Source: Candidatus Xenobia bacterium (GTDB taxonomy: Bacteria; Vulcanimicrobiota; Xenobia; Xenobiales; QWHO01). From it: DNA of 64,000 bases. The notes under the pieces are model-generated. The model searched no databases. It was not told the origin of the DNA and saw only the letters and a list, made by a program, of their open reading frames with translations. The stretch covers positions 21,468 to 85,467 of the forward strand of contig BTUM01000026.1 in assembly GCA_045863235.1 (NCBI GenBank), read 5' to 3'. The position numbers and the translations under genes are program-made. Of this stretch, positions 3,957 to 51,919 are shown piece after piece (the first letter of the stretch is position 1; each line of letters opens with the position of its first letter).

Positions 3957-5542
3957 TCTCCGCCGTCCAGCGGCCCTTCTCTGCCCCTGTTGCCAGCGTG
4001 GGCGACTTCTATGAGCGCTCCCTGCATCAGCTGAAGTCCGCTCCCTACGGCGACCAGAGGGACGCGGTGGGAGAGAAGGTCTTGCAGGAGCTGGCCCGGC
4101 AGCCTGGTCTGGCCGAGGTGGCCCGCGCCGGCCAGCGCTGGGGCCTGGCCCAGGACGACTATGCCCTCAAGCAGCTGCTGGAGATGGTCCGCCAGGGCGA
4201 GCGCGACCTGCGCAAACTGGCCAGCTCCTGCACACCGTTGATGGCGCCCTTCTCGGTGAAACGACAGCAGCTGGAGGAGTTCGCCTCAGACTCTGAGGTG
4301 GGCTGGCTGGGGCGACTGGGCGGCCAGTTGTGCGATGCCACCAGGAGCGAGAACCTGAAGGAAACGATCTGGAGGGATGCGCTCTGGCAGCCGGCCGATT
4401 CCAGCCCGCTCCAATTCGTGTGGCTGCTGAACACACATATGAAGTACACCAGCCTGGCCGAGAAGAACGCCATGGCCGAGCCGATCTTCGAAGCCATGCG
4501 CGAGCATCCGACGGACCGCTGGGTGGTGGAGGCATTGGAAGAGTGGGAGCTGACCCTGGACTGGCCCACTCTCGAAAAGGGGCTCGACTGCTGGAGCAAG
4601 GGTCCCGACGACCTGGCCCGCAAGGTGACTCCCGAGGTGGCCTTTGCGGTGCAACAAAAGCAGCTGGCCCGCCTGCCGGTCGCGCAGGCGGTGCACGCCG
4701 CCGTGACGACGCCCGAGAAGAAGAAGGTTGCCTGGTCGATGGCCCTGAGCGCTACCGAGGAACAATTCGTGAAGCGCTACGTGGGATATCACTACTCCAC
4801 CAGCCAGGCGGAGGACCAGGCCGTCTTCGAGGCCGTCCGACCCGTCCTGCAGAACACGATGTCGGGCCAGCTGCTGGAGCGTTGGGGTCTCACCAGCTTG
4901 CAGGCCCTGAAACTGGCCGTGAGTCAGCCGCAGCCTGCGGATACCTGGCAGTTCGCGCTGGGAGCCACCTCGGCCGCCGACAACGTGGCTCAGGAGCGCC
5001 AGCTGGCGGAGCTGGACGCCCCTACCGGCAGACTGGCCAGCCAGCTCTTTCCCGCCCTGAACTCCGACCAGCGCCATAAAGTCTGGCAACAGGCCGTTCG
5101 AGGCCGCGATTCGGACGAGGACCAGGCGCGCACCGTGCTGCTGGGCGCCCTGAGCGCGGCCGGGGTGAACGAAGGGCAATCGTTGCCCCTGGTAAGCGCA
5201 TTCTGGCAAGATTTCGAGTCCACCAGCGAACAGGTCGCACACGTGCAGAGGCTGCACCGCATTGCGCGGGGGGAAGGGCTTCAGTTTGTTCTGGAGCAGC
5301 TGCTCGCTCGCCCCATCATGAGCGACCGGCTGCGAGAGGACCTGACGGCCCTGCGCGGGCAGGCGGTCGGCTGGGACCAGCTCAAGCCTCTGCTCGAGCG
5401 CATGAAGCAGGAAGCCAAAGAAGAGGACTTGATTCGCCATATGGCTCGCGAGCGCGATCCAGGCGCGGGAATCAAGGAAGAGCCCGACGCGGTGCGGGTG
5501 GGAGGAATTCGTTTGCCCAAGCGAGGGACCGGCGCGGTCTGA
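3953..5542 (+). CDS. Hypothetical helical protein with C-terminal VxVGGxxL motif
   Basis: 529-aa ORF with typical codon bias, coupled start; ends IKEEPDAVRVGGIRLPKRGTGAV. Confidence 0.75.
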   Translation: MISAVQRPFSAPVASVGDFYERSLHQLKSAPYGDQRDAVGEKVLQELARQPGLAEVARAGQRWGLAQDDYALKQLLEMVRQGERDLRKLASSCTPLMAPFSVKRQQLEEFASDSEVGWLGRLGGQLCDATRSENLKETIWRDALWQPADSSPLQFVWLLNTHMKYTSLAEKNAMAEPIFEAMREHPTDRWVVEALEEWELTLDWPTLEKGLDCWSKGPDDLARKVTPEVAFAVQQKQLARLPVAQAVHAAVTTPEKKKVAWSMALSATEEQFVKRYVGYHYSTSQAEDQAVFEAVRPVLQNTMSGQLLERWGLTSLQALKLAVSQPQPADTWQFALGATSAADNVAQERQLAELDAPTGRLASQLFPALNSDQRHKVWQQAVRGRDSDEDQARTVLLGALSAAGVNEGQSLPLVSAFWQDFESTSEQVAHVQRLHRIARGEGLQFVLEQLLARPIMSDRLREDLTALRGQAVGWDQLKPLLERMKQEAKEEDLIRHMARERDPGAGIKEEPDAVRVGGIRLPKRGTGAV

Positions 5543-5561
5543 AGCGAACCAAGGCCGGACT

Positions 5562-6380
5562 ATGCCCTGGGTTGTTTGCGTTCTGGAAGATGATGCCGAC
5601 ATGCGTGAGGTTCTCGCTGACGTACTCGAGCAAGACGACCTCTACTCGGTGCATGCCGCCCCCTCGCCCGGACGGGCCCTGCAGTTGGCCGAGAAGCTAC
5701 AGTTCGACCTGGTGGTGGCCGACGTGCGCATGGCTGAGATGGATGGCATCGAGTGCCTGGCCGAGCTGCGCAAGAACCAGCCTCACCTGCGCAGCATCGT
5801 GATGACCGGCTACGCGTCCGAGGATGCCCCGGGCCGGGCCATTCAGGTGGAGGCGGAAGACTATCTCTACAAGCCGTTTCGGCTGAACGAGTTCCTCACC
5901 ACCGTGCGCCAGGTGCTGGAAACCAAGAAGCAGCAAGCCATGTACGCCGGCCTGCTGTCAGCCTACCACCGCTCCCGCAAGCGGCCCACCCAGGCCGACT
6001 CGCCTGAGGCCTGGCGCGACCGTGTCTTCCGTGCCTTTTACGTGGGAGTGCGCTCGGGCTGGCTGGAACTGCCGGCGGCCCTGGAGGCTTGGGATCGGCT
6101 CGAGCGCCTTGAGTCTTCCGGCGATGACTTCACCGGGGCCAGCTCGGCCGGCTATCAGAAGCTGCTCGACCTGGTGCTTCAACCCGAGAAGCTGCTGGCC
6201 AGCCCCTTCCGGCCCGATCGCGCAACCGCTAAAGAGTTCGAGACATTCTTCAGGCGGGTCAAGCAGGGCCAGATTCCCCCCGAGCTGATCAAGCTAGGGC
6301 CGCTGCTGCGCAAGCTCGACAGCGTTTCCTTGCGCGAGTTCCCGGATTTGAAGGGCCTCTACGACCAGACCTGGGGCTAA
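5562..6380 (+). CDS. Response regulator (REC domain plus unknown C-terminal domain)
   Basis: VLEDD, DLVVADVRMAEMDG, MTGY, YLYKPF. Confidence 0.85.
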   Translation: MPWVVCVLEDDADMREVLADVLEQDDLYSVHAAPSPGRALQLAEKLQFDLVVADVRMAEMDGIECLAELRKNQPHLRSIVMTGYASEDAPGRAIQVEAEDYLYKPFRLNEFLTTVRQVLETKKQQAMYAGLLSAYHRSRKRPTQADSPEAWRDRVFRAFYVGVRSGWLELPAALEAWDRLERLESSGDDFTGASSAGYQKLLDLVLQPEKLLASPFRPDRATAKEFETFFRRVKQGQIPPELIKLGPLLRKLDSVSLREFPDLKGLYDQTWG

Positions 6381-6424
6381 CCGGGGAGTGGACCTTCCGG
6401 CCGCGCGACCCCCACAACCTTGTG

Positions 6425-6799: not shown

Positions 6800-6821
6800 G
6801 TCAGGCTGTTTGCTTTGCACC

Positions 6822-25846: not shown

Positions 25847-26034
25847 AGCCCTCTGATCCTGGCTCAAGTGCCTGAAAGGAAGCTGAATTGTCGCCCCTCC
25901 TGACGTCGCAAACTTCGTCGCCCTGACCGTGCCACGAAACCTGCAACCGCTTCCCAGGCAGGGCGGTGCGGGTTGCAACGCGTTCGCAACTGACAGGGCC
26001 CAGACTCCAACCACTTGATGTGGGAGGTTCGTAT

Positions 26035-37317: not shown

Positions 37318-37484
37318 ACCTCCTTAGAATTTTGGCTACCTGGCTCGCCTTCCTGCGTTCTCGTGTTAAAGATTTCGAAACACTTTCGAAACAGGCTCGC
37401 AACCAGCTGCTCATCTCCCGTTCACACCGCAGGCGTAGGCTGGAATTGGGTCCGGACCCGCACTATTCCAAAGGAGTCAATTCC

Positions 37485-37857: not shown

Positions 37858-37887
37858 AGGGCGCGCCCCCTGCGGGGCGCGCCCTTT
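37858..37887 (+). terminator. Intrinsic terminator
   Basis: AGGGCGCGCCCC-CTGC-GGGGCGCGCCCT followed by TT. Confidence 0.7.
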
Positions 37888-37926
37888 CCAGGTTCTTTCA
37901 GCCTCGGGTGCGAATCTTAGCCGACA

Positions 37927-39366
37927 GTGAACATCCCTCATCGCACTCCCCCCACCCGAGTCCACCTGGTCACCTGGATGGACGCCACCGAGGCCGTCAT
38001 CGAGCCGATGGCGGTGGATAGCCTCAACAGCATCGAAGACGCCCGGGCCATCGCGGGCAACCAGTTCACCGGGGAGATGATGCTCGAGCGCAAGGTCATG
38101 CCGTTCGGTCGAAAGATGGCCACGGGGGTGGTCAAACTGGGAGCGCTGGTGGCAGCCGGAGCGAGCGTGGCTCTGGGCGCGGGCCTGGCCATAAGCGGGA
38201 GTCCGCTGCTGGGGCTGGGACTGGCCGCCGCCGGAGCGGGCGTGATCCACAAATTTGGCACCTCCCTCTTCCTGCGGGGCGCCGGGCACGTCTACTCGGC
38301 AATGCTGGGCAGAAAGATGGCCGAGCCCGCCTGGAGCGGCGTGCGCACCTACGAGGTGACGGCCAACACCTCCAAGGCGCTCGACTCCAGACTGGTGTCC
38401 GAGAAACCTCTCGAGACCAGGCGCGACCTGCCTTCCATCAGCGACTTTCTGGCCAACGGAATGAAAAAGTATCCCAAGGAAGACATCACGGTCGTGCACA
38501 TGATGGGTCACGGGCTGGGCTATCGCCAGACGGCCGGATTGCCTTACCAGGAGTATCGGACGGTGGTGGACGAGACGGTGCAGAAAGCCGGCCGTCCCAT
38601 CGACGTGCTGTTGCTCGAGTCGTGCCTGGAAGGCAACCTCGAAGCCGTGGCCGGCATCGGGGACAGGGCACGCTTCGTGCTGGTCAGCCAGGAAACCATC
38701 AATGCCGGGGCCGTGGGGGAGCTGCTCTTGAGCACGACCGCTCGCACTACCGGCACGACCTTCACGCCCGAGAAGTGGGGCAAGACCATGGTGGAGTCAG
38801 CCCGGGTCATGGGCGGATCCTCCCAGCCCGAGACGCTGGCCCTGGTGGATACCCGGAAACTGCCCGCGGTCACGCAAGCCCTGGACGAGCTGGGGGCTCT
38901 GCTGCAGGCCGAGGTCGGCTCCAACGCCGAGGCCCTGACCGCGGCCGTGAAGGCCACCCAGCTCTATCCCAAGGATTGGCCCCACCGCTCCACCGGCGAG
39001 AAACTGGGGATGGGCGACCTGGGCCACTTCTGTCGCAATCTGCAGCGGGTCTACATGGGGAAGTCGATCACCCGGAAAAGCGGCCTGGGGCCCTTCAAGT
39101 CACAAACCGACGTCTCGTTTCCACAGGCCGCCGCCTCGCCGCGCGCGGCCGCCATCCTGGAGGCGGCCGTGAAAGTGCGCGAGCTGGTGGACGAAGCGGT
39201 CGTCGCGCGCCACACCGTGCAGCGCTATGACGAGGCCTGCGGCCTCTCGGTGCAGCTCCCCACCAGCTCGCTGGCGCGCCTCGACAAGAAGTTCATGCCT
39301 TTTGCCGACAGCGCGGCGCCGCCAAACTGGCAGGGTTTCGTGCGTACCATGAGCGCCCGGGTTTGA
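37927..39366 (+). CDS. Clostripain-related (C11) cysteine peptidase with N-terminal TM hairpin
   Basis: MMGHGLGY His, DVLLLESCLEG Cys, SQE, TLALVD, DLGHF, GLSVQLP. Confidence 0.8.
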   Translation: MNIPHRTPPTRVHLVTWMDATEAVIEPMAVDSLNSIEDARAIAGNQFTGEMMLERKVMPFGRKMATGVVKLGALVAAGASVALGAGLAISGSPLLGLGLAAAGAGVIHKFGTSLFLRGAGHVYSAMLGRKMAEPAWSGVRTYEVTANTSKALDSRLVSEKPLETRRDLPSISDFLANGMKKYPKEDITVVHMMGHGLGYRQTAGLPYQEYRTVVDETVQKAGRPIDVLLLESCLEGNLEAVAGIGDRARFVLVSQETINAGAVGELLLSTTARTTGTTFTPEKWGKTMVESARVMGGSSQPETLALVDTRKLPAVTQALDELGALLQAEVGSNAEALTAAVKATQLYPKDWPHRSTGEKLGMGDLGHFCRNLQRVYMGKSITRKSGLGPFKSQTDVSFPQAAASPRAAAILEAAVKVRELVDEAVVARHTVQRYDEACGLSVQLPTSSLARLDKKFMPFADSAAPPNWQGFVRTMSARV

Positions 39367-39490
39367 AGGCCGGGGAAACGACCACCAGGTCGATGTCGCT
39401 GTCGATCCAGTGGTCTCCCCGGGCGCGCGAGCCGAAGACGGCCAGGCACTCCACCGGCAGTCTCGGCTGCAGGGCCTGAAGATAGCGGGT
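39365..39490 (-). pseudogene. Remnant of a minimal nucleotidyltransferase (MNT, antitoxin-type)
   Basis: Own translation: TRYLQALQPRLPVECLAVFGSRARGDHWIDSDIDLVVVSPAF; no nearby start codon, C-terminal half missing. Confidence 0.75.
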
Positions 39491-40674
39491 TACATCACCC
39501 GGCTGGCCAGGTCGGCCAGGGGCATGAGCACCGACAGCACCAGCCCGCCCACCAGCAGGCCCATCACCAGGATCAGGCCCGGCTCGAGGTAGCGCACCAT
39601 CAGAGCCCGGCGCCGCTCCAACTCGCGATCATAGAAGCTGGCGGCCGACTTGAGCATGGGCTCGAGCTCGCCCGAGCGAACGCCGGTCTTGAGGAATTGC
39701 TGCAAGAGCGGGGGCACCAGGTAGCTTCGCGAGATCGCGTCGGCGATGCTCTCGCCTCGCTCGACGGCCGTCTCGGCGTGGCGCAGCTCGAGGTCCATGG
39801 CCAGGTTGCCCACCACCTCGCGGCTCATGGACAGGGCTCGCAGGAGGGGCACTCCCGCCCCGTGCAGCATGCCCAGCGTGCGGGCCCAGCGAGACATCAG
39901 CCCGCAGCGCTCCAGCGGACCCAGCAGGGGCAAGCGCAAGCGCAGGTGGTCCAGGGTCACCGGGGGTGTGAGCCGTCGCACCAGGTAGACCAGCAAGCCC
40001 ACCCCGACCACCACCAGGGGTCCGTAGGTGCGCAGGATGCCCCCCACGGCCACCACCAGCCGGGTGATCGGGGGCAAGGGCGCTTCGATTGCGCCGTACA
40101 TCTCGTTGAGCACCGGCGTCAAAAAGGCCAGCAGCCCGAAGAAGAGCAAACTGGAGAGCACCACCAGCATGATCGGGTAGGTGAGGGCGCTCGCCAGGGC
40201 TCGCTGGTGCTCGAGATCGCGGGCCAGGAACTCGGCGTAACGCTCGAGGATCTCGGCCGGCTTGCCCGCTTCCTCGCCGGCCTGCACCATGCGCACCAGC
40301 ATGGGCGGAAAGATGCCCTCTTCCGCCATCGAGCCGGCCAGCGTCTCGCCCTCGCGCAGGCGCACCCGCACGCGAGCGAAGGCGCGCCCGAGCTTGACGC
40401 TCTCGGCGTTGTGGGAAAGCGAGTCCAGGGCCTCGTCCATGGGGATGCTCGAGCGCAGCAGGGCAGCCAGTTGCAGAATGCCGTAGGCCAGGGCGTCATC
40501 GGCTTTGGCCCCGGTGGAACGAGCCCGGGCAGCGCCCACGTCTTCCTGCACCTGGGTGGGGAACAGCCCGCGTCCGCGCAGCTTCTCGTAGGCTCCTGCC
40601 CGCGAGCCGGCGTCCACCAGGCCGCGCAGGGCGCGACCGGCCGGGTCGGTGGCCTGGTAATGGTAGAGCGGCAT
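39490..40674 (-). CDS. gspF: Type II secretion inner membrane platform protein F
   Basis: MPLYHYQA, VREGETLA-like, AGEEAG, ALTYP, LEPGLIL. Confidence 0.9.
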   Translation of the reverse strand: MPLYHYQATDPAGRALRGLVDAGSRAGAYEKLRGRGLFPTQVQEDVGAARARSTGAKADDALAYGILQLAALLRSSIPMDEALDSLSHNAESVKLGRAFARVRVRLREGETLAGSMAEEGIFPPMLVRMVQAGEEAGKPAEILERYAEFLARDLEHQRALASALTYPIMLVVLSSLLFFGLLAFLTPVLNEMYGAIEAPLPPITRLVVAVGGILRTYGPLVVVGVGLLVYLVRRLTPPVTLDHLRLRLPLLGPLERCGLMSRWARTLGMLHGAGVPLLRALSMSREVVGNLAMDLELRHAETAVERGESIADAISRSYLVPPLLQQFLKTGVRSGELEPMLKSAASFYDRELERRRALMVRYLEPGLILVMGLLVGGLVLSVLMPLADLASRVM

Positions 40675-40679
40675 CCTCG

Positions 40680-42131
40680 CTACATCCGCGAGACGCGCAG
40701 AGCTTCCTCGCTCGAGGTCAGCCCACGCGAGACCTTGATCCCGGCATCCTCCACCAGCGAGCGCATGCCGCGCTCCTGGGCGGCCCGACGCAGCGCCCGG
40801 GCATCTTCCGAGCGAGCGATGCGGCTGGCCAGGTCGGAGTCGACCACCATCAGCTCGAAGACGCCCATGCGGCCCTTGTAGCCGGTATTGAGACAGGCGG
40901 CGCAGCCTCCGGGGCGGTGAAACTGAGGATTCTCGGGCATGCTGGCGAAGCCCAGCTGGCGCAGCTCGGTGGCCTCCGGCTTGTAGGGCTTCTTGCAGTG
41001 CGGACAGAGGCGCCGCACCAGGCGCTGGGCCATCACCCCTAGAAGCGAGCTGGACAAAAGATAAGGCGGAACGCCCAGGTCGAGCAGTCGCGAAGCGGCC
41101 GTGGGGGCGTCGTTGGTGTGCAGGGTGGACAGCACCATGTGGCCGGTGAGCGCGGCGTGGATGGCGATCTCAGCCGTCTCGGGGTCGCGAATCTCGCCCA
41201 CCATCAGGATGTCGGGGTCTTGCCGCAGCACCGAGCGCAGGCCGGCCGCGAAGGTCACCCCGATCTTCTCGTTGACCTGGATCTGGCCCACGCCGGCCAC
41301 CTGGTACTCGACCGGGTCCTCGATGGTGATGATGTTGCAGTGGGGCGAGCGCAGCGTCTGCAGGAACGCGTAGAGGGTGGTGGTCTTGCCCGAGCCGGTG
41401 GGTCCGGTCACCAGCACCAGGCCGTAGGGGTGGCTCAGAATGTCGCTGATGACCTTCTGCTCGGTGGGCGTGAAGCCGAGCTGATCCATCGAGAAGAGCC
41501 GGATGTCTTTCTCCAGCAGTCGCAGCACCACCCGCTCGCCGTGCAGGGTGGGCACGCACGACACGCGCACGTCGATGTGCCGCTCGCCCGAGTGCACGTG
41601 CAGACGACCGTCCTGGGGCCGCCGGGTCTCGGCCAGGTCGAGCCGGGCCATCACCTTGAGCCGGGCCGCCATCTGGGCGTGGCGTGAGCGGGGCACGCGG
41701 TGGATCTCGTGCAGCACGCCGTCCACGCGCATGCGCACCAGCGACTCCTCCTCGTAAGGCTCGACGTGAATATCGGAGGCGCCGTTTTGCATGGCCTCCA
41801 GGAAGATGGCGTTGATCAGTCGCACCACCGGGGCGCCGGCGGCTTCGGTGAGGAGGTCTTGCGAGGTGGGCACCTCGATGTTGGGCGTACCGTCCTCGCC
41901 GCCGGAGCGAGAGCGGGTATCCTCGACGAGCATCCGGCGCAGGCCGTCCTCGATCTCGTCCAGGCTCATCACCACGGCCCGCACGTCCTTGCGCAGGGCC
42001 AGCCGGATGTCCTCGAGCAGATCACGGGGCGTGCCCTGGTGGATGCCGACAGTGACCCGATCGAGCGCGTCCTCGATGGGAAGGATGCGGTGGCGCTGCC
42101 AGAAGTCGAGCGGAATCTCGCTCTTGATCAA
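40680..42131 (-). CDS. gspE: Type II secretion ATPase E
   Basis: ASDIHVEP, PQDGR, GPTGSGKTTT, LRQDPD, tetracysteine motif. Confidence 0.95.
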   Translation of the reverse strand: MIKSEIPLDFWQRHRILPIEDALDRVTVGIHQGTPRDLLEDIRLALRKDVRAVVMSLDEIEDGLRRMLVEDTRSRSGGEDGTPNIEVPTSQDLLTEAAGAPVVRLINAIFLEAMQNGASDIHVEPYEEESLVRMRVDGVLHEIHRVPRSRHAQMAARLKVMARLDLAETRRPQDGRLHVHSGERHIDVRVSCVPTLHGERVVLRLLEKDIRLFSMDQLGFTPTEQKVISDILSHPYGLVLVTGPTGSGKTTTLYAFLQTLRSPHCNIITIEDPVEYQVAGVGQIQVNEKIGVTFAAGLRSVLRQDPDILMVGEIRDPETAEIAIHAALTGHMVLSTLHTNDAPTAASRLLDLGVPPYLLSSSLLGVMAQRLVRRLCPHCKKPYKPEATELRQLGFASMPENPQFHRPGGCAACLNTGYKGRMGVFELMVVDSDLASRIARSEDARALRRAAQERGMRSLVEDAGIKVSRGLTSSEEALRVSRM

Positions 42132-44602
42132 GGCGCCTTTTGCTCCAGCCGAAGCTGGCGCGGAACCGGCAGGCGCGCCACCAGCTCATCGCCCACGTAG
42201 GCGCGCACGTCGAACTCGTAGACCCCGGCTTTCTCGGGGAAGCGCACGGCCGGCAGGGAAATGTCCGCCTCCTGGCCCGAGGGCAGCTCGAGCTTTTGCT
42301 CTTCCAGGCGCACCTGGCGCCCGTCGGGGGTGATCAGGTAGCCCACCAGGGTGACGGTGGTATCCGCGCCGCGCGAGTTCAGCACCGAGACCACCGGCAG
42401 GCCCACGCCCCCGAGCTGCAGGGGCGAGTCGAAGCGGAAGTCGCCCAGCGAGATCCCCGTTCCCCGGCTGGCGCCGGGCTGGGTCTCCGGGGTCACATAG
42501 GGGTCATAGGGGTCGGGCTTGATGGTCGGCTGGGGCTCGGTCTGCTGCTCGCCCGGCTCCTGGTTGCCGCGCAGGAACTTTTGATAGGGCCGATCGACAT
42601 CCTCCAGACCCTTGCTGGAGTCGACGATGTGAGGGGTGATGGAGATGAAGAGGGTGGTCTTGTCCTCTTCCTTGCGCATGTCGCGGAACACCGCGCCGAT
42701 GAGCGGGATGTCGCCGAGCAGGGGCACCTTCTTCATCGTCTCCACGGTCTTCTTGGAGATGAGGCCGCCGATCATGACCGTCTCGCCGTCGCCCAGCGTG
42801 AGCGTGGTGTTCACGTTGCGATTGGAGATGATGGGCACCACGTAGCCGAAGCCGCCCAGGTTCTGCTGCAGGAAGTCCGTGACTTCCTGGATCTTCTGCT
42901 TGATCTCCAGGCGCACCCGGGTGGACTGGGAGATGTTGGGGGTGACCTTGAGCTGGATGCCCACCTCGCGGTAGTCGTAGGTGACCAGCGGCTGACCGAA
43001 GGTGTCGAAACGAGCCCCGGTGGCGAACGGCACCACCTGGCCCACGTTGATCTCGGCTTCCTTGTGGTCTTCAGTCAGCACGCGCGGAGCCGAGATCAAG
43101 TTGAAGTCGGAGTTCTCACGCAGAGCCGAGATCAAGCCGAAGGCTTCCGGCACCTCGACGTCCCGGCCGCCGACGTTGATGGTGCGAGTGCCCGAGGCCA
43201 CCGCGCCCACCAGGAAGTTGCCCGAGGCCAGGAAGCTGAGCAAGCCCTCCTCGGTGACCCCGCCCTGGAAGGCCGACAGAACGCCGCCGGGTGTGATCAC
43301 CTGGAAGTTGGACTTCTGGGTCAGGATGCGGCCGAGCGAGACTTCGGCCACCACGCAGGTCACCAGCACTTGCTTGCGAGCAAGGTCCAGCCGGCTGATG
43401 ACGGGGACCAGGTCGTCATACTCGGAAGGCGAGACGAACAGCACCAGCGAGTTGGTCTCGGCATCGGCGGCCACCTTGGCGCTTACGAAGGTGCGCGAGC
43501 GCACCGGCTCGTCCTTGCCGGTGGCGTTGACCGAATAGCTCGGGTAAGGCTGATTGACGTCGGGCTGGCCGGGCGCTCCCGGGCTGGGCACCGCCGAGGG
43601 GGTGGGCGCGGTACCCGGCACGTTGCTTCCCTGCTTGTTCTCCTGATCGCTCTGAGCCTTCCGCTCCTGGAGCATCTCGGAGAGGATCTTGGCCACGTCC
43701 TCGGCCTTGGCGTTCTGCAGCGAGTAAACGAAAAAGCGCGGCTTCTCGATGACGTCGGGGGCGGCCGTAGGGATGTCCAGGCGGGTCATCAGCTTCTTGA
43801 TCTGCTGGATCTGGTCGGCCGGGCCCTGGATCAGGACCGCGTTGGCCGGCGGGAAGGCCTGGATGACCGTGTCCGTTCCCGACTTGACGTAGAGCTGCTG
43901 CAGCACGGGCACCAGCTTCTCCGCCTCGGCGTAGCGGGGGAAGAGAATGGACTGGTGAGACTTGGGCGAGACCGTGTCCATGTGCTTGGCCAGTTGGGCG
44001 ATACGGGAGACCACGTCGGCCCGGTCAGCGATCACCAGGGCCTTGCCCGGCACGTAGGCTGACATGAAGCCGGTCTCGGTCAGAAGCGGCCGGACCACGT
44101 TCTGCAGGGTATCCGGATTGGCTTGCTTGAGGATCAACAGGGCCAGCACCGGCTCTTGCCGGCTGGTCACCGTGGAGCCCGGGTTGGTGATCAGGGGGGC
44201 TTCGCGGCGCCCCTCGGCCAGGGGAAGAACCTGCACGAAGTTGCCCCGGTCGCGAACCGTGAAGCCGTAGCGGATCAGGGAGGTCTTGAAGATGTCCCAG
44301 GCCTCGTCCGGGGTCACCTCGCGCGAGGAGAGGACCGTCACCTTGCCCTGCACCCGATCGTCCACCACGATGTTGCGCCCCGTGAGCACCGACATGATCT
44401 TGGCCATGTCCTTGATGTCGAGGCTCTCGTAATTCATGAGCAACCGACCGCTGCGGAGCTGATCGGCCATTTCGGGAGAGATCAGCGGCCCTTTCGGTTT
44501 GGGCGGTTGCGGCGGCTGGGCATAAGCGCCGCCCGTCAGGCTAAGCAAAATGCTCACCATGACCAGCAAGAATGCTATTTTGCTGCGGGGTTGAGGCTCC
44601 AT
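42128..44602 (-). CDS. gspD: Type II secretion secretin D with extra C-terminal beta domain
   Basis: Signal peptide, N0-N3 domains, VPLLGDIPLIGAVF secretin motif. Confidence 0.93.
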   Translation of the reverse strand: MEPQPRSKIAFLLVMVSILLSLTGGAYAQPPQPPKPKGPLISPEMADQLRSGRLLMNYESLDIKDMAKIMSVLTGRNIVVDDRVQGKVTVLSSREVTPDEAWDIFKTSLIRYGFTVRDRGNFVQVLPLAEGRREAPLITNPGSTVTSRQEPVLALLILKQANPDTLQNVVRPLLTETGFMSAYVPGKALVIADRADVVSRIAQLAKHMDTVSPKSHQSILFPRYAEAEKLVPVLQQLYVKSGTDTVIQAFPPANAVLIQGPADQIQQIKKLMTRLDIPTAAPDVIEKPRFFVYSLQNAKAEDVAKILSEMLQERKAQSDQENKQGSNVPGTAPTPSAVPSPGAPGQPDVNQPYPSYSVNATGKDEPVRSRTFVSAKVAADAETNSLVLFVSPSEYDDLVPVISRLDLARKQVLVTCVVAEVSLGRILTQKSNFQVITPGGVLSAFQGGVTEEGLLSFLASGNFLVGAVASGTRTINVGGRDVEVPEAFGLISALRENSDFNLISAPRVLTEDHKEAEINVGQVVPFATGARFDTFGQPLVTYDYREVGIQLKVTPNISQSTRVRLEIKQKIQEVTDFLQQNLGGFGYVVPIISNRNVNTTLTLGDGETVMIGGLISKKTVETMKKVPLLGDIPLIGAVFRDMRKEEDKTTLFISITPHIVDSSKGLEDVDRPYQKFLRGNQEPGEQQTEPQPTIKPDPYDPYVTPETQPGASRGTGISLGDFRFDSPLQLGGVGLPVVSVLNSRGADTTVTLVGYLITPDGRQVRLEEQKLELPSGQEADISLPAVRFPEKAGVYEFDVRAYVGDELVARLPVPRQLRLEQKAP

Positions 44603-45309
44603 GTCGGCTTGGCCCAGGTCCCTCCCAGGCGCACCGATCCTTTAATATTTCCGGCCTGCATGTCAAGTACCCCGGCCAGCAAAGGGGAGGGCTGATCGGG
44701 CGCCGAGCGAATCTCCACGCTGCCCGCGCCCGTTAAATTTTCTCCCGAGAGGCGCACCTCGGCCAGGATCTCGGTGCCCGGGCCGGGCTTGGAGGGACGG
44801 ATCTGCACCGGAGCCCCCAGTTCGACTCCACCGAGCGGGATGGGCAGCGGCACGTTCAGCTTGGGCAGCACCATCCCGATGTCCCCTTTCCCCTCCAAGG
44901 TGGCCAGGGAGTAGCTGAAATTCTTCACCGTCACCAGAGCATCGCCCAGGTCGGCGCTGCCGGTGGTGACCTTGAGCGACCGGGCGGTAATCGAGAGCAA
45001 GCGCGAGCGGTCGAGGGTGAGACTGGCGCTGCCCTCGCTCTGGCGCACGGTGGCCGAAAGGCCTCCAAAGGTGGGGCGCAGGGTGGCTCGGGTCAGCTCC
45101 ACGCGGCTGTTACCCGGCATGCGCACCCGCACATTGCGAAGCTCCACCCCAAGCGGACCGGCGTCCTCGCCGTCCCAGGCGATCTGGGCCCCGGTGGCCT
45201 GGCTGATCTGATAGAGCGAACGCTTGACGGCCGCCTCGTAAGGGAACCGCAACACCAGAAAGAGCAAGAACAAGACCAGCCCCACCACGATCTTCCCAAG
45301 GACGCTCAC
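44575..45309 (-). CDS. gspN: Type II secretion protein N
   Basis: N-terminal TM then LRFPYE, beta-rich, ends GTWAKP; position in cluster. Confidence 0.7.
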   Translation of the reverse strand: MSVLGKIVVGLVLFLLFLVLRFPYEAAVKRSLYQISQATGAQIAWDGEDAGPLGVELRNVRVRMPGNSRVELTRATLRPTFGGLSATVRQSEGSASLTLDRSRLLSITARSLKVTTGSADLGDALVTVKNFSYSLATLEGKGDIGMVLPKLNVPLPIPLGGVELGAPVQIRPSKPGPGTEILAEVRLSGENLTGAGSVEIRSAPDQPSPLLAGVLDMQAGNIKGSVRLGGTWAKPTWSLNPAAK

Positions 45310-45743
45310 GGGCGGCCGCCCACCTCGAGCACCAGGTTGACGGTCCAACTGCCGTCCCCGTCCGGATCGGACAAAATCAAGTGGGGAATGCGCAGAGCCA
45401 CCTGCGTGAACTGGGAGAAAAGCTCCGAGACCTCGACCGGGCTCATGCGCCGCAGCCGAATCGTGATTCCGGTCTTGGTGGGCTGGTTGTTCTCGACCTT
45501 CTCCTGGAATTTCTTGAGCGGGTTGGCAGCCAGCCAGCCGGGCAGATCCGGGGTGGGGGCCGGGCGGGTCTTGAGCAGAGCCGGGTCGATCCCCGACACC
45601 AGCGTCTCGGCCCGCTGGCGAGCCAGATCCAGAGTGTCGATCTCCAGCGCCAACCGGGCGTTGGCCTGCCCCCGGACGATGCCGTAAATCAGGCCCAGCA
45701 AAATGATGGAAGCCGTGAGAATGAGGGGCAGGCGCTGTCTCAC
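45306..45743 (-). CDS. gspM: Type II secretion protein M-like
   Basis: TM, coiled coil and small alpha/beta domain between gspL and gspN. Confidence 0.6.
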   Translation of the reverse strand: MRQRLPLILTASIILLGLIYGIVRGQANARLALEIDTLDLARQRAETLVSGIDPALLKTRPAPTPDLPGWLAANPLKKFQEKVENNQPTKTGITIRLRRMSPVEVSELFSQFTQVALRIPHLILSDPDGDGSWTVNLVLEVGGRP

Positions 45744-47062
45744 TCGCGCACCCTCCCCTCGATCATGAAGCGCACCTTGCCACTGGAGAGGTTCTCGGTG
45801 CGGGGCATCTCCACCGCCTCGAACACCTTCGAGAGGTTCTGGCGCACTTCGTCGGCAGCCTGGATGGAGTCGGCCTGGCCCTCGAGCTGGAACTTGCCCG
45901 AGTCAAGCTGAATGCGACGCAGCAGGGCCTCCGAGCCGAGCGGCTCCTTGAGAGAGGCCACCACCTCGGCCAGCGCCTCGGGGGAGAGCTGCCGGTCCTT
46001 GCGCGCGGTCGTGAGACGCGCCTGAAGCTGAGTGATCTGCTGCTCGGGATGCTCCTTGGGATTGGTCCCCAATCCCCGCATGGTGGCCGCGAACGCCTGG
46101 CGGGCCTGAGTCCGCTGCCCGAGCAGCAGGCGATGGCGCGTCTCCAGGTCGGCCACCAGCAGAGCCAGCAGCACGCAGGCGGCGATCCAGGCTCGTCCCA
46201 GCGTGACCGGAGAGGATCGAGCGCTGACCCGGGGCTCCTGCAGGCGGACCCGCGGCTGGTTGGGACGCACCGCCAGCGCGGCGCCATAAGCTGGAACGTG
46301 CTCGTAGGGCGAGAGGGAATCAGGCAGCGGGAAGAGCTGCGGCTCCACGCCGAGCTTGGCCTTGAGCAGGGAATTGAGCCCCGGCATGGCCGCCCCGCCC
46401 CCGCACAGCAGAACGTGCTCGTAGGGCAGAGGGGTGGGGAGGAAGGCCTCCTCGAGCAAATCGTCCACCATCTGGCGGCACTCGGCCAGCTCCAACCCGC
46501 GCTCGCGCTTCTGCTTCTCAGCGTCGGTGTGGGTCAGGTTGCGCTTGCTGGCCAGCAGGGCGGTCAGGCTGATGCCGCCGCGCATCAACACGCGCACCCA
46601 CTCCAGCTGGCCGTCTTGAATGCCGCAGAATGTGGTTCGCGAGGCGCCCAGGTCGATCACCAGGGCGCTCTGCACCCCGGCCGCCAGGGCGGCCCGGAGG
46701 TAGGTGAGCGGCTCGGCGTCCAGGCTGGCCTGATCGCCCACGTCGCGGCGCAACCGCTCGAGCCGGTCGAGTGGAGCCACCACAACCCAGGCCTGGCCTC
46801 CCTGCTCGGTCCAGTCCCAGGCCGCCTCCTCGAGCGGGAATGGCAGCGAGAAGGAGAGCTCCTCGCGCAGCACGCGCCGGCGCACCTCGCGGCCGGCGGG
46901 GGGCACCGAAAGCCTTCGGAAGGTGCACAGGTCGGACGGGACCGAGGCGTTGGCCCGGGCCGGTGGATCCCCCTCCACCTCCCTGGCGGCGCCCCAAAGC
47001 AAACCCACCGAGACCTGACGGGTCCCGGTGGTTCCTACATCCAGACCGGTTTTGCGGAGCAT
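45740..47062 (-). CDS. gspL: Type II secretion protein L (PilM-like actin fold fused to PilN-like domain)
   Basis: GLDVG, LPFPLEE, IDLGASRT, LCGGGA, then TM and LEGQA. Confidence 0.8.
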   Translation of the reverse strand: MLRKTGLDVGTTGTRQVSVGLLWGAAREVEGDPPARANASVPSDLCTFRRLSVPPAGREVRRRVLREELSFSLPFPLEEAAWDWTEQGGQAWVVVAPLDRLERLRRDVGDQASLDAEPLTYLRAALAAGVQSALVIDLGASRTTFCGIQDGQLEWVRVLMRGGISLTALLASKRNLTHTDAEKQKRERGLELAECRQMVDDLLEEAFLPTPLPYEHVLLCGGGAAMPGLNSLLKAKLGVEPQLFPLPDSLSPYEHVPAYGAALAVRPNQPRVRLQEPRVSARSSPVTLGRAWIAACVLLALLVADLETRHRLLLGQRTQARQAFAATMRGLGTNPKEHPEQQITQLQARLTTARKDRQLSPEALAEVVASLKEPLGSEALLRRIQLDSGKFQLEGQADSIQAADEVRQNLSKVFEAVEMPRTENLSSGKVRFMIEGRVRE

Positions 47063-47064
47063 GA

Positions 47065-48093
47065 CTACAGACGAGTCCATTCGACCACTTTGAGCGAACC
47101 TCCCTCGCGTCGCACCACGACATCGAGCTGCATGCGGCCCGGCATCTGATCGATGGCCACGCGAATGCGGAAGAACGAGCTCTCGAAACCCACCAGGCTG
47201 CCCACGCGGAAGGCCATGTCGGCGTTCATGCCCGCAATGTTGCGCAGATCCTGCTCGGATTTGAGCGGACTTTGCTCTCTCTGACTCAAGATTTCCTGCA
47301 CGACGGCCTCGTTCATGCTGTCGTCCAGGGCCAGTAAAACCTCACCCGGGGCGGTGTTGGCGTTGATTCGTCCGCCCGACCAGACGCTCATCCAATCCGA
47401 CCATTTGCTGGTGTTGGCCTGGGGCGCCAACGAAGGGGAGGCCGAGGGCGAGGGGGTGGGTACTCCCAGCTTGCGCCGAAATTCCTCGATCTCGAGCTGC
47501 CCGCCGCCCCCGAGCGAGGCCAGCGGATCCTTCTCGTAACCGCGCGGCGGTGGCAGATTGGGGGGATTTTCCCAGCCCCGCAAGTACTGCAGCTCTTCCA
47601 ATGAGTCCAGGCGAGCGTTCTTGACCAGAGCCTGGCCGTAGTCGCCCTGCTCGGCTCCCTGGGGGCGGCGCAGCGAATCCGGGTCCATCCAGTCTTGCAG
47701 CGAATCCAGGGCCAATTGCGGCGGAGTGCCGGCCCGCTCGAGAAAGCGGACCAGGGCCGAGCGCAGCTTGCGGTTGTTCTCCTCCGAGGGGGTGGCCAGC
47801 TCGTTGAGGGGGAAACGCCGATCCTCGTCGGTGATCTCCAGGGTGAACTCGCGCCCGTCGAAAGGCAGCGTCTGCTTGCCCAGGGCCCAGAAGTCCCCGA
47901 AGCCGTCGTAGTCGTTGTCGTCGGCTCGCAAGAGCTCCATGGCCATCTCCACCACCGACCGGGCGGCCAGGTAGTTGCGCTCGCGCAACTCGGCGTGGCG
48001 ATAAAGCGCCGAAGTGGAGATCCAGGCATCCCCCAGGATCGTGGCCAGGGTGATGGCCACCATCAAGATGATGAGCACCATGACGATCACCAT
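47065..48093 (-). CDS. gspK: Type II secretion minor pseudopilin K
   Basis: ITDEDRRFPLN, DWMDPD, LEELQYL, GRINANTAP. Confidence 0.9.
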   Translation of the reverse strand: MVIVMVLIILMVAITLATILGDAWISTSALYRHAELRERNYLAARSVVEMAMELLRADDNDYDGFGDFWALGKQTLPFDGREFTLEITDEDRRFPLNELATPSEENNRKLRSALVRFLERAGTPPQLALDSLQDWMDPDSLRRPQGAEQGDYGQALVKNARLDSLEELQYLRGWENPPNLPPPRGYEKDPLASLGGGGQLEIEEFRRKLGVPTPSPSASPSLAPQANTSKWSDWMSVWSGGRINANTAPGEVLLALDDSMNEAVVQEILSQREQSPLKSEQDLRNIAGMNADMAFRVGSLVGFESSFFRIRVAIDQMPGRMQLDVVVRREGGSLKVVEWTRL

Positions 48094-48695
48094 CGGCCGC
48101 TCCCCAGCCCGGGGATCACGGTCGTGGTGAAGGTGGACTCGTCATGGTAGGTCAAGAGCACCCGCACCGCTTTGGGCGGCTCGGGGGCGTCCCACTCGCG
48201 CTGGAAGATGCGCCCATCGGGCGAATAATCGAGCCGCATCTCTTTCACGCTCTTGTCCAGGGGCTTGAAAGGGGCTTCCTCCTGCTCGGTCCAGGGTCGC
48301 AAGCCTCGCAGATCGCGGGTGCGGAACTCCCGGTAGGCCAGGTAGCTCTTGCCCTGCTCATCTTCCAGCACCCGGTAGGTGGCCTCGACCATTCCCCTGT
48401 TGTCCTGGCCGGCGCTCGTGATCAGGCTCATGGCCTCCTCGGCTTCGCCCGGCAGGCGCCCTCCTTTGAGGCAGGAGCCTTCGTTGGGCACGAACAGACA
48501 GCGGATCTGCCAGCGCAGCAGCTCGATGGTGCGCAGGCGCTCCTGCCGGGCCAGGCAGGCGGAGGTGCCGAAGCGGCTGGCCCGGCTGAGCTGCACGGTG
48601 CTGTAGCCGACCAGCAGGTAGAGCAGGGCGACCAGGCCAACGACCACCACGATCTCGATCAGGGTGATGGCGCGGGTGTTGGGTCGACTGCGCAT
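48087..48695 (-). CDS. gspJ: Type II secretion minor pseudopilin J
   Basis: RA/ITLIE prepilin-like start, W..PEPPKAVRV end. Confidence 0.75.
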   Translation of the reverse strand: MRSRPNTRAITLIEIVVVVGLVALLYLLVGYSTVQLSRASRFGTSACLARQERLRTIELLRWQIRCLFVPNEGSCLKGGRLPGEAEEAMSLITSAGQDNRGMVEATYRVLEDEQGKSYLAYREFRTRDLRGLRPWTEQEEAPFKPLDKSVKEMRLDYSPDGRIFQREWDAPEPPKAVRVLLTYHDESTFTTTVIPGLGSGRW

Positions 48696-49315
48696 CAGAA
48701 GCCTCCCGACGAGGGAGCCCCGGTCGTGGAGCCACCGCCGGTGGTTCCGCCCGACAGGCCGCCTCCGCTGGTGGTTCCGCCCGACAAGCCCCCCCCGCTG
48801 GTCCCACTCGACAGGCCCCCGCCTCCGGTTCCGCCCGGCCGGGGACTACCTCCGGGCCTGGGGCTGGCTCCTGGGCGTGGAGAGGGCGAGGGGCCTGCGC
48901 CCGGGGGCTCATCCTGCCGCCGGGCTCGCAAACGATAAGCCGAGACCGTCACCGGCAACTGGGTGGTAGGCGTGAGCACCAGGATCACCGCTTCCAGGCG
49001 CGGGTCGGCCGTGGTCACCTCGGAGCTGATCTGCACCTTCCAGGGCTCCCCGTCGCCCGGCTCGCGCGGATAAGGATAGAAGTCACGAGTCTCCTCGCCG
49101 GGGGTGCGCTCGCCCAGGGCCGCTTCCAGCTCGTAAGACGCCAGCAAGAGGTTCTGAAAGCGAGGAGTCAGGCGGGCGACGCCTGCGAGCTCGAGGGCCA
49201 CCGAGCGCAGCAGCACCCCCAGCACCAGCGCAGCCAGGCCCAGGGCGACCAGAACCTCCAGCAAGGTGAAGGCTTTCTGGCTCAACCAGTGAGGGCGAGG
49301 CCGGGTTCTGCGCAC
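48695..49315 (-). CDS. gspI: Type II secretion minor pseudopilin I with Gly/Ser-rich tail
   Basis: KA/FTLLEVLVAL; first gene of the cluster. Confidence 0.75.
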   Translation of the reverse strand: MRRTRPRPHWLSQKAFTLLEVLVALGLAALVLGVLLRSVALELAGVARLTPRFQNLLLASYELEAALGERTPGEETRDFYPYPREPGDGEPWKVQISSEVTTADPRLEAVILVLTPTTQLPVTVSAYRLRARRQDEPPGAGPSPSPRPGASPRPGGSPRPGGTGGGGLSSGTSGGGLSGGTTSGGGLSGGTTGGGSTTGAPSSGGF

Positions 49316-49680: not shown

Positions 49681-49821
49681 GGCCGCGTAGGTTTCTTGCA
49701 CACTTGTCTCAAGTTTGGTCCAAACCCGAGAAGATAACCTCAGGTCACAACACACAAAGCTTCGTCGCACGGACTTTGCTGGACGCGGGCGAGGGAGCAC
49801 GGAAAGATGGAGGGCTCGAGA

Positions 49822-50421
49822 ATGGCTGAGGTTGCAAGCGTTGGCTCTGGTTCGGGTGGGGGATCGGCTCCCCGCGTTGAGGCTCCCCGCCCCGCTCCGC
49901 CCGCTCCGCCCGCTCCGCCCGCTCCGCCGTCAGGCGCCGGCGGCGGCACGACGCGAGGTGATCGGGTGAGCATCTCCTCTGAGGCGGGGGAGCCTGCTCA
50001 GGGGTCGAGCATTCCCAACTTCGAGGCCGCCTACCAACCGGGCGGTGCCTGCGTGGCCCCGATGCCGAACGATCCGGTGGCCGACGGACCCTTCCGCTCC
50101 GAGCACGAGCTGGTGCGCCGGCTCATGCGCGGCGAAGCTCCCACGGCTCGGGCGCTGCGTGATCGTCCCATCGACGAGATCATGACCGACATGCTCCGAA
50201 GTCGCACGCCGACCGACGCTGAGACCTTCACGGACGCGGTGCACCTCGACCAGGAGATGGCCCACGCCACCGGCCAGCCCTACCTCACCGACGAACGGCT
50301 GATGAACATGCAGATGCGATCACCCGCTCCCGTGGATGGGGCTTCTGAATCTTACGTGCGCGACCTGAACCGACTGCAGGAGATGCACCAGGCCGGCTGC
50401 ATCCCCTATCCCATGTCCTGA
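49822..50421 (+). CDS. Hypothetical protein with Pro-rich leader and DRVSIS box
   Basis: GGAGG RBS at 49809; 199 aa. Confidence 0.75.
   Translation: MAEVASVGSGSGGGSAPRVEAPRPAPPAPPAPPAPPSGAGGGTTRGDRVSISSEAGEPAQGSSIPNFEAAYQPGGACVAPMPNDPVADGPFRSEHELVRRLMRGEAPTARALRDRPIDEIMTDMLRSRTPTDAETFTDAVHLDQEMAHATGQPYLTDERLMNMQMRSPAPVDGASESYVRDLNRLQEMHQAGCIPYPMS
49891..49926 (+). repeat. 4 x 9-bp coding tandem repeat (PAP)
   Basis: CCCGCTCCG x4. Confidence 0.85.
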
Positions 50422-50469
50422 GGAGCCTGAAAACCGTGCGCCGAGCTACCCCGCTGCATCGTAAGGCGG

Positions 50470-51207
50470 TTACGCCTCCGGATGACCCGGGTTGGCTCGG
50501 CGCGAGAGGCTCACCCCGCCGAATGTAACCCGAGTGGGCGTCTGCTCGACCGCCGCCGTCCGTGCCTGAAAACTCTCCCCCAATTTTACGGCCGCAACCT
50601 GCTTGAGCCGATCAGCAGCGTCCTTGCGAAGAGAGGCTTCCTGGGCCCAGAATTGCTCGCTCTGGATAACCTCGGCTCGAGTCTGGCGGATCAGCTCGGG
50701 ATTGCGACGATTGAGCTGGTCGCAGGCCATGGTGACGGCCAAGCCTACCGTCAGCCCCAGGCCGCTGGTGTAAATGAATGCGGTGATCGGGTCCTCCTGG
50801 AGCCCGTAGAGACACCCGGTCAGGCCAGCCAGGAGCCCCGCCAGCCCGATCAACCAGGCAGACTTGCGGGTCTCCTGGTTGACCCGCTGATTGTGCGGCT
50901 CGGAAAGACCCAGCTCTTTTGGGGACGCAAGCAGATCGGAGAATCTCTGGCGGTGAGTATGAGCCAGGTCGCTCCCCTGCAGGAGCCAGGCGGAAGCCTG
51001 CAGGCTTTCTATCTCGCGATCGGCCCGCTCGTCGTAGCCCCGTAGAATGAACGTCTCCCCGGGCCTCTCCGTGGGACAGAGCAGGTCACTCAGAGTCGTA
51101 GCTCCACCTCGCTCAGTCAGGCGTTGGTCCAACTCGCCGCCCCGCCGTGGTATGGTTCCCAGCTCTCGAACCCAGTTAACCGGGTGGGCGCTCATCGAAG
51201 TTTCCAT
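50470..51207 (-). CDS. Hypothetical two-TM protein with C-terminal VxFGGxxL motif
   Basis: Two hydrophobic helices; ends VEQTPTRVTFGGVSLSRRANPGHPEA; start uncertain. Confidence 0.7.
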   Translation of the reverse strand: METSMSAHPVNWVRELGTIPRRGGELDQRLTERGGATTLSDLLCPTERPGETFILRGYDERADREIESLQASAWLLQGSDLAHTHRQRFSDLLASPKELGLSEPHNQRVNQETRKSAWLIGLAGLLAGLTGCLYGLQEDPITAFIYTSGLGLTVGLAVTMACDQLNRRNPELIRQTRAEVIQSEQFWAQEASLRKDAADRLKQVAAVKLGESFQARTAAVEQTPTRVTFGGVSLSRRANPGHPEA

Positions 51208-51373
51208 GCAGGTCAAGCTTAACCTCACCACCTTGAGATTTCCTTAAATCCATTCGGCCTTCGGCCCGCCCGGGCGGAGGAATTCGGCTCATCCCGGGCC
51301 CTTCGCTCAGCGGAAACCAATCAGCCAGCGAGGCGGCTCACTCGCTCGAGCCGTGCCTGGCCCGGTTTCTCTT

Positions 51374-51919
51374 TCAGGCCTGAGAGCCGGCCCGGCGCAC
51401 GCGCGTGCCCCCGATGGCGACGAAACCCTGTCCCTCTCGGATTCTCTCGGCTCCGTTCGGGACCAGAAGTCGCAGAGGCTGAAGCCGCTCTTCCAGCTCC
51501 CCTTGCTGACCGCGAAGCTCCCTGGCTTCGCGGGCTCTGGCCTGCGCGATCTCTTCGGTCTGGGTCCGCCACTCGCGCTCCCGGAGGTTCCCTGAGGTAG
51601 TCCGGGCCAGAAACGCGATCCCCGCGATGATGCAGGGTCCTGTGGCCATCACAGCGTCGGTGGGGAGCAGGCCCGACCAGGCCCCCAGGGCAGTCACGGC
51701 CGCCACGGTAAACGAAGTCGCGCACAGGGCCATCGGCACCGGGGAAGCCTGCGCGTGGGTGGCTTCCATTTTCTGGCTGATCGAAACGCAGTCTTGGAGT
51801 TGGCGCGACTGGTCGTCCAACTGCTCTGCCAGTGCCGAAAGCAGCGCCAATTCGGTCTCCCGGTCGATCAGGCTCAGTTGGTGAGTTTTCGTCGATGGTT
51901 GCGCAGGGTAGATCTGCAT
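51374..51919 (-). CDS. Hypothetical two-TM protein with C-terminal VxIGGxxV motif
   Basis: Coiled coil, two TM, coiled coil; ends IREGQGFVAIGGTRVRRAGSQA. Confidence 0.75.
   Translation of the reverse strand: MQIYPAQPSTKTHQLSLIDRETELALLSALAEQLDDQSRQLQDCVSISQKMEATHAQASPVPMALCATSFTVAAVTALGAWSGLLPTDAVMATGPCIIAGIAFLARTTSGNLREREWRTQTEEIAQARAREARELRGQQGELEERLQPLRLLVPNGAERIREGQGFVAIGGTRVRRAGSQA

Follow-up and report, generated by a model that had tools for sequence, protein, structure and literature searches.

Why should three proteins that share no other similarity end in the same short motif? The question is raised by a stretch of 64,000 nucleotides (nt) from a Candidatus Xenobia bacterium (GenBank assembly GCA_045863235.1, contig BTUM01000026.1), the whole of which we call the window, and in which three orphan genes encode proteins with a common tail close to the C-terminus. 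An original prediction made from this DNA proposed that the tail is a new sorting or export signal. We find that it is a real, lineage-specific C-terminal module borne by many unrelated proteins, and one that is apparently undescribed so far. Judged from sequence, the tail would set apart the non-enzymes within a large group of proteins that are co-regulated and probably exported by a type III route, and it is probably a second, class-specific handle on these proteins, not their export signal. The three carriers and their tails, with lengths in amino acids (aa), are as follows.

3953..5542, plus strand: 529-aa orphan carrier, negative in Pfam and Atlas searches, with the TTCAG promoter described below not directly upstream
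5471..5524, plus strand: tail module of the 529-aa protein, a predicted three-stranded beta-meander of the basic form
50470..51207 (the start may be 51195), minus strand: orphan carrier of 245 aa, in the middle of which the sequence shows a hydrophobic stretch with two lobes
50497..50550, minus strand: tail module of the 245-aa protein
51374..51919, minus strand: orphan carrier of 181 aa, again with a two-lobed hydrophobic centre; the Atlas model is mostly a long helix
51389..51442, minus strand: tail module of the 181-aa protein

Translation of the segments at 5471-5524 (+), 50497-50550 (-) and 51389-51442 (-) gives exactly the peptides originally reported, which lie 5, 8 and 4 residues from the stop codon in open reading frames (ORFs) of 529, 245 (or 241) and 181 aa. 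There is no full-length homology among the three proteins, as their bodies have no BLAST similarity to each other. All three are singletons in BLAST clustering, with bodies unlike any other tagged protein, and a Pfam scan of them found no match.

The genome to which the window belongs (G000) is 8.36 Mb in size, with 65.8% guanine plus cytosine and 97.6% completeness; gene starts and the 7,123 gene calls come from a simple in-house gene caller. Three tails in 64 kb had been expected to imply many genome-wide, and indeed 177 of the 7,123 called proteins bear one. This strict set is used for counts unless stated, because at least two members of a looser set of 193, a PilC paralogue and C37:52195, are false positives. 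Written as a regular expression, the originally proposed consensus matches 151 times among the genome's 108,809 stop-to-stop ORFs, and 85 of these matches lie fewer than 10 residues from the stop. A hidden Markov model built from the three tails only, and iterated blind to position, gives 182 matches, of which 174 lie within 30 aa of the stop. The refined profile has the consensus [VI]-x-E-x4-V-x-V-G-G-V-R-[VL]-[RK]-[RK]-R and, at an independent E-value (iE) below 0.1, finds 171 matches compared with one in reversed ORFs.

A check for C-terminal bias had been suggested, and the bias is strong: 171 of 178 matches in called proteins fall within the last 30 aa, which hold 8.7% of the residues. 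As the main profile was trained on its own matches, an independent check was made with a profile from relatives. This profile, in which five of the 56 rows come from G000, recovers 101 proteins of the genome, and 98 of its 102 matches are C-terminal. In the relatives themselves 54 of 55 tail matches are C-terminal, in 53 loci. The module is about 20 residues long and is followed by 0-30 residues, mostly polar. The seven internal tails among the 178 matches have 170-320 residues behind them, and one distant protein bears the tail twice in tandem.

The carriers amount to 2.5% of genes and 3.9% of coding residues, with a median length of 440 aa against 303 aa. Without their tails they fall into 86 BLAST clusters, the largest with 34, 25 and 12 members, and most are orphans. 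A Pfam scan of carriers took in 120 of 184 tagged ORFs, namely those in multi-gene regions and the longest single ones. No family was found in 93 of these; 17 are PQQ/PD40 beta-propellers and six contain InhA-like MAM domains, the remainder being one HD protein, one DUF885 protein and two weak, probably spurious, rows. The segment before the tail is helix-rich (E, Q, A, K, R and L make up a share of 0.49 against 0.42-0.44).

The tail is maintained at the protein level, since 88 tail cores are spelled by 48 different codon strings and the core is better kept than the body (identity 0.73 against 0.60 in 26 homologous pairs, some of which are duplicates). No 6-8-mer is enriched behind the stop codon after correction. 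The tagged genes are spread over 83 contigs, across which no neighbour family recurs beside them, and no conserved neighbours were found among those listed for 20 loci of low-copy genomes. A DNA repeat or mobile cassette was rejected in view of the diverse codons, the lack of a motif behind the stop and the lack of recurrent neighbours.

Some carriers have further features of their own. In four of them (C135:163-2361, C3:76161-78410, C32:68044-70086 and C3:123379-125997) a repeat domain without annotation, about 190 residues long and with the unit Y-N-P-x-T-G-x-V-E-W, comes after the tail. Two paralogues (C22:1469-3586 and C31:23146-24357) have a tail-like motif near residue 385, and we take their first 35 residues to resemble the N-terminus of flagellin.

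The tagged genes share a promoter as well as a tail. Upstream of them is the pattern TTCAG-N6-TTCAG-N10-TAnnCT, about 6-7 nt before the start. In cross-validation at 12 bits or more it is present at 113 of 177 tagged genes and at 140 of 6,946 other genes, while column-shuffled matrices reach this score 0-1 times in 2,000. The genome contains 418 such sites, compared with 19-39 for shuffled matrices. They were assigned to 375 genes, consisting of 121 strictly tagged genes (of the 177) and 254 others, an odds ratio of 57. Predicted leaderless transcripts are found for 124 of 130 tagged genes of this regulon and 132 of 245 untagged ones. The window contains the following sites relevant to the carriers.

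51216..51247, minus strand: promoter-like site with a degenerate TTCAG repeat (16.0 bits), immediately ahead of the 245-aa gene
51930..51961, minus strand: TTCAG-N6-TTCAG-N10-TAnnCT site resembling a promoter (20.8 bits), with 10 nt between its end and the ATG of the 181-aa gene
311..342, plus strand: promoter of the same type, 24.0 bits, before an untagged phospholipase D-like gene at 363/408-2702

A site is thus present at two of the three window carrier genes, and the leader of the 181-aa gene is predicted to be short or absent. The site at 311..342 could also drive the downstream 529-aa carrier.

The geometry of the promoter resembles that of boxes bound by OmpR-family regulators, an example being the tandem BqsR box of Pseudomonas, TTAAG(N)6TTAAG (PMC4358008, accessible part). 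The carriers' promoter likewise has a 5-6-5 arrangement upstream of a -10 element. It differs in that the repeat is TTCAG and the regulon comprises about 375 genes with export-type leaders. One OmpR-type gene with an assigned site was considered as the regulator and rejected: its repeat is TGTCAC, a different box, and hence a few of the 375 assignments are false. A PspA/IM30-family membrane-remodelling protein (C102:21295-22008; L292:8842-9552, minus strand) has the same promoter at 30 bits.

The N-termini of the tagged regulon proteins suggest how they leave the cell. The original prediction noted that none of the three window proteins has a Sec signal, and this extends to the class: by a crude hydrophobicity test none of 130 tagged regulon proteins has a Sec-like start, compared with 23.7% of other genes. 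The N-termini are rich in S, P, A and T and poor in charge, and a D-x-V-x-L-S-like motif is found in 21.5% of the tagged regulon proteins and 3.1% of other genes. A classifier trained on the N-termini of untagged regulon proteins separates the tagged ones from other genes with an area under the curve of 0.91 with the promoter and 0.76 without it. It also places FliK and a rod-binding protein, both outside the positive set, above the 5% threshold. The type III-like leader, as a matter of composition, holds for the carrier class; the three window proteins themselves are under the threshold.

A candidate exporter is encoded at C27:54348-79219 (L074, L075). This cluster contains FlhA, FlhB, FliR, two FliQ, FliP, FliO, two FliN, FliM, a rod/hook-type protein, FliK, a lytic transglycosylase, FliJ, FliI, FliH, two FliG and FliF, so that the parts of a type III/flagellar export apparatus (FlhA, FlhB, FliP/Q/R, FliI/H/J, FliF and the C-ring) are all found; two genes of the cluster are presumably FlgB and FliE. 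Behind the cluster are three copies of a gene for a needle-like protein of 81 aa, one of them preceded by the promoter site, and a 473-aa relative. No flagellin was found in G000. Several relatives that do have flagellin contain two full-length FlhA, so the C27 cluster looks like a separate exporter. A role in flagellar motility was rejected, because no flagellin match was obtained in 8 of the 14 tag-bearing genomes tested. We conclude that the tagged regulon proteins are probably exported by this flagellum-derived type III machine.

Other flagellar genes are present in the genome. A second small cluster on C74 encodes FlgF/G-like, rod-binding and FliK-like proteins and a sigma factor fragment. 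Paralogues of the FlhA cytoplasmic domain (FlhA-C) without membrane segments are found on C80, C3, C1, C106 and C107 (L076-L080), two of them fused to FliG-N, and relatives have up to 19 FlhA-family matches.

The tail exists in two forms. AlphaFold predicts a three-stranded beta-meander for both, with a predicted local distance difference test score (pLDDT) of about 80-86. The acidic form, roughly L-E-x-D-x-E-x-L-x-I-G-D-x-x-V-P-V, is found in genus g6; it came to light in G060, in genes behind the promoter that are homologues of tagged proteins. Counting its training rows, a profile of this form matches 42 times in one of the two g6 genomes and 32 times in the other. The basic and acidic profiles align as homologous at 94.7% probability, and over the last 22 residues the net charge is +2.0 in the basic form and -4.4 in the acidic form. 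The original prediction had described a small beta-hairpin with a basic tail. A small beta structure is upheld by the models, with three strands in place of two, and a homologous acidic tail in one genus means that the basic charge is dispensable. We had considered the tail absent from the whole of family f3; this was wrong, as g6 bears the acidic form.

At least three matches to the basic profile are found in 14 of 251 genomes of the phylum, and five others have one weak match each; the one of these five that was inspected lies 99 residues from the stop. Genomes of the same genus have at least 82-138 tail matches each. Neither profile has a match in g2 (0/10), g3 (0/2), g4 (0/8), g5 (0/6) or g7 (0/2), from which further forms of the tail could escape. 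In G084 there is one tail, on a 41-residue frame, and the carrier propeller family was not found, and in G050 a homologue of one tagged protein ends before the stalk and tail.

The original prediction also allowed that the tail might match a described domain, and no such match was found in the libraries searched. Searches with the tails returned one chance PDZ row in Pfam and three single chance rows for 111 tails in NCBIfam, and likewise nothing meaningful in PHROGs, PDB sequences or the Atlas. Fold searches against PDB and viral structures had a best Z of 2.1 and no E below 0.5, a weak test with models of 36-44 residues. A search of 1.84 billion proteins gave 23 matches, 21 with the best stretch near the end. 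A second broad search gave 11, of which only two are named, as hypothetical proteins labelled Proteobacteria. Their tails are those of a same-class genome, so there is no evidence for the tail outside the phylum, within the low reach of such short profiles. In the literature, subscription papers lying outside the scope, the accessible texts contained nothing on such a tail, nor on secretion in this lineage beyond PMC9259500.

What, then, distinguishes the tagged proteins from their untagged partners in the regulon? Enzyme families are found in two of 120 tagged proteins and in 27 of the 82 untagged regulon proteins scanned (of 245), paralogues among them not being independent. The untagged enzymes include proteases, nucleases, acyltransferases, phosphodiesterases, a peroxidase and a P450. 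About a dozen untagged proteins of 660-780 aa, with export-type leaders, have the same C-terminal MAM-like domain as large tagged proteins; members include C29:46849, C14:118649, C31:25902, C94:17332, C5:160017, C5:163067 and C5:178264, among others. Leader and promoter are common to the tagged and the untagged members of the regulon, and the tail is therefore unlikely to be the export signal that was originally proposed: the 245 co-regulated proteins have the same kind of N-terminus and no tail. A handle for one partner would fit these features: a small, predicted amphipathic sheet that caps a stalk, is found on binding-type and membrane proteins, and tolerates internal position, duplication and a genus-wide change of charge.

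The best candidate for this partner, a lead and not a result, is a TolB-like propeller (G000 C51:44151-45212; L279:12828-13886, plus strand), a single-copy gene with its own type III-like leader and promoter. It occurs in 16 of the 251 genomes, comprising 13 of the 16 tag-bearing genomes and 3 of the 235 others, with 51-95% identity. It is absent from G084 and present in the three tagged congeners of that genome, and in G035 its gene is directly before a tagged gene. Its conservation is unusual for a predicted exported protein. Four other candidates were tried and set aside. All 12 tag-bearing genomes tested have the 81-aa needle-like protein, but so do 10 of the 17 others, a wider distribution than that of the tail; the FlhA-C paralogues and C14:44390 do not track the tail; and the YbjN fold is present in the tail-less g4 and g5 and was not found in tail-bearing G035.

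The reading that we favour, while giving it somewhat less than an even chance, is that the tail is a docking handle gripped by a common partner after export through the N-terminal leaders. One OmpR-type regulator would turn on the approximately 375 genes jointly, and their products would leave through the flagellin-less exporter. The enzymes, mostly without tails, would be released, and the tailed propellers, MAM-like proteins and stalked membrane proteins would be retained at the cell surface or at the contact with a prey or host cell. The holder would most likely be the co-regulated, single-copy TolB-like propeller, much as cohesins hold dockerins.

The dockerin-cohesin pair of the cellulosome offers the best functional analogy. 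A dockerin is a duplicated helical segment that binds calcium, is carried by a Sec-exported enzyme and is held by a cohesin. The likeness is that of a small module, mostly C-terminal and behind a linker, which varies between lineages and recurs on unrelated exported proteins by the dozen or the hundred. The tail differs in being a predicted beta-meander on proteins that have no Sec-like signal and are mostly non-enzymes. No dockerin family of Pfam matches any carrier or tail scanned, and the predicted core is all beta.

Several observations weigh against the docking reading and against its proposed partner. Both the promoter and the exporter have a wider distribution than the tail. Promoter and tail can be separated, since the strict form of the pattern is present in g5, which is tail-less, and was not found in g8, which has tails. 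Of the window carriers, the 529-aa protein lacks a promoter site for its gene alone, and the N-termini of all three score 0.26, 0.12 and 0.23, below the classifier threshold of 0.264. The TolB-like propeller was the fifth candidate tried, among kin genomes that are not independent, and it was not matched in tag-bearing G104 (64% complete), G040 and G020. Tails were predicted in its three other holders and the prediction failed, with none in G027, none in G031 and nothing C-terminal in G066. In the g6 orthologues of the propeller the charge changes are symmetric, with four conserved acidic and four conserved basic columns lost. Its co-occurrence with the tail could equally be explained by membership of the same exported class.

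The main rival, which we consider unlikely but the strongest of the alternatives, places recognition before export: a general chaperone or the export gate would read the tail inside the cell and set the order or route of one class of substrate. The flagellar chaperones FlgN, FliS and FliT bind the C-termini of their substrates and dock them on FlhA (PMC8527033, accessible part), G000 has five or six membrane-less FlhA-C paralogues and seven YbjN-fold matches, and the carriers are long, as their median length indicates. The sites bound in the FlgN-FlgK/L, FliS-FliC and FliT-FliD pairs are, like the tail, C-terminal on substrates of flagellar-type export, yet they are disordered, with one chaperone for each substrate and three or four structural subunits served, according to the same source. 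The tail is one predicted folded motif on about 180 proteins in a genome in which flagellin was not found. Neither the FlhA-C paralogues nor the YbjN-fold proteins follow the tail across genomes, and no partner gene recurs beside the tagged genes.

Self-assembly is next, and less probable again. The tail would be a knob that trimerises the helical stalk after export, or lets carriers assemble together, in the manner of the T4 fibritin foldon. The foldon and the beta-prism tips of phages are likewise short C-terminal beta elements after a helical stalk, and the helix-rich segment before the tail is in line with this. From the column pattern, the alternating V, I and L would set five hydrophobic side chains on one face, and a charge flip across a whole genus would be easier with no outside partner. 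The PDB and viral fold searches returned no foldon or beta-prism match in sequence or fold, which counts little for such very short models. The acidic form with its net charge of -4.4 would repel itself, and a tandem double tail is unexpected for a simple trimer knob.

It is improbable that the tail is the export signal of another machine, be it type II, type IV or some other. The strict C-terminal bias speaks for such a signal, as does a set of basic C-termini which we take to resemble the signals of VirB/D4 substrates. Two carriers also adjoin the following operon.

39490..49315, minus strand: type II secretion operon (GspF, GspE, GspD, PilM-like, GspK, pseudopilin), adjoining two carriers without a statistical link

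The original prediction drew attention to this neighbourhood, and the position proves to be what chance gives: a random gene has at least two tagged genes within 12 genes in 15% of cases, and a tagged gene is nearby for 5 of 20 GspE/PilB/PilT paralogues, compared with 36% of random genes. With no enrichment near type II or pilus ATPases the link to the gsp operon was rejected. The carriers also lack the features of type II substrates, having no Sec-like signal (the Tat motif was not scored separately) and no gsp association. No TssC/VipB and no PF04984 sheath were found in G000. Nine core queries of F- and I-type type IV secretion systems gave no match, while two pilus-ATPase controls gave 22 matches each; P-type queries and profiles were not run. 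Internal copies and the acidic form also argue against an export signal, as does the N-terminal leader that carriers share with untagged regulon proteins. The genome has about 45 PilC/GspF-like paralogues and 20 PilB/GspE/PilT-like ATPases, yet only two secretin matches.

Known C-terminal signals do not account for the tail either. The type IX C-terminal domain (CTD) is a beta-sandwich of 70-80 residues, sortase-type signals need a terminal membrane helix, and all of these need an N-terminal Sec signal. Like the tail, the type IX CTD, LPXTG, PEP-CTERM and GlyGly-CTERM are shared C-terminal signals on many unrelated surface proteins, and the two glycines and basic residues of the tail are superficially similar to GlyGly-CTERM. 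The original prediction set the tail apart from LPXTG, PEP-CTERM and GlyGly-CTERM, correctly so: it has no C-terminal membrane helix with a basic cluster, its carriers have no N-terminal Sec signal, and no such NCBIfam model was found among the 111 tails. No type IX CTD family of Pfam was found in 120 full-length carriers, and the module has about 20 residues and three predicted strands.

A little more doubtful is the idea that the tail is a by-product, without a partner, of gene birth by shuffling from a common template. The leaderless type that predominates among tagged regulon genes suggests a shared template, and the scatter over 83 contigs is compatible with one. The codons are diverse, the core is better kept than the body, no DNA motif is shared after the stop and in one genus the charge has shifted in concert across the entire set, all of which speak against it. 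We give least credence to targeting within a eukaryotic host, by nuclear import or binding of acidic lipids: the ends are K/R-rich in this genus and two window carriers have a two-lobed hydrophobic layout resembling that of chlamydial Inc proteins, but orthologues in g6 end in the acidic version and the conserved part is a hydrophobic strand pattern with a turn.

The remaining features of the window may be noted briefly. In the 245-aa carrier the two-lobed hydrophobic centre, as read from the sequence, is flanked by charged, helical-looking segments. RNA contigs are short and of low depth, and the one inside the 245-aa gene is too thin for an expression level or a start. Further promoter sites are present at 25856-25887 (-), 37410-37441 (+) and 37886-37917 (+), and a clostripain-like gene at 37927/37978-39366, which like the phospholipase D-like gene at 408-2702 has a type III-like leader, is under the TTCAG promoter. 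Convergent on the 245-aa carrier is an untagged orphan at 49807-50421 (+), with a proline/glycine-rich start and the leader motif D-R-V-S-I-S. At 56778-61754 (-) there is a 1,658-aa bacterial alpha-2-macroglobulin with an N-terminal match to a PQQ-type propeller.

Extending the docking reading, we suggest with considerable reserve that part of the Vulcanimicrobiota (Eremiobacterota) may use a two-address export. A leader and a flagellin-less machine would serve about 375 proteins, and the tail would clip up to about 190 adhesin-like and membrane proteins onto an exported propeller scaffold, forming an array for contact with prey or host; the untagged enzymes would be released, and the charges of tag and receptor would change together between genera. 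Taken as a whole this picture is unlikely.

Through the tail, mostly orphan genes of an uncultured bacterium gain a sequence handle, and a large predicted secretome can be divided in two. It is normally the N-terminus that directs export of the type III kind; if the docking reading is true, one shared C-terminal module on about 180 substrates would add a second layer of sorting or assembly to it. The tail, the leader, the promoter and the candidate partner are all short, and the natural basic and acidic versions of the tail lend themselves to a swap experiment. The accessible text of PMC11484240 makes no mention of secretion or flagella. In the accessible part of PMC9259500, marine relatives with diverse secretion systems are proposed as predators on genomic grounds. 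If the reading is true, the tail system would be concrete machinery for the predation proposed in these marine relatives (PMC9259500).

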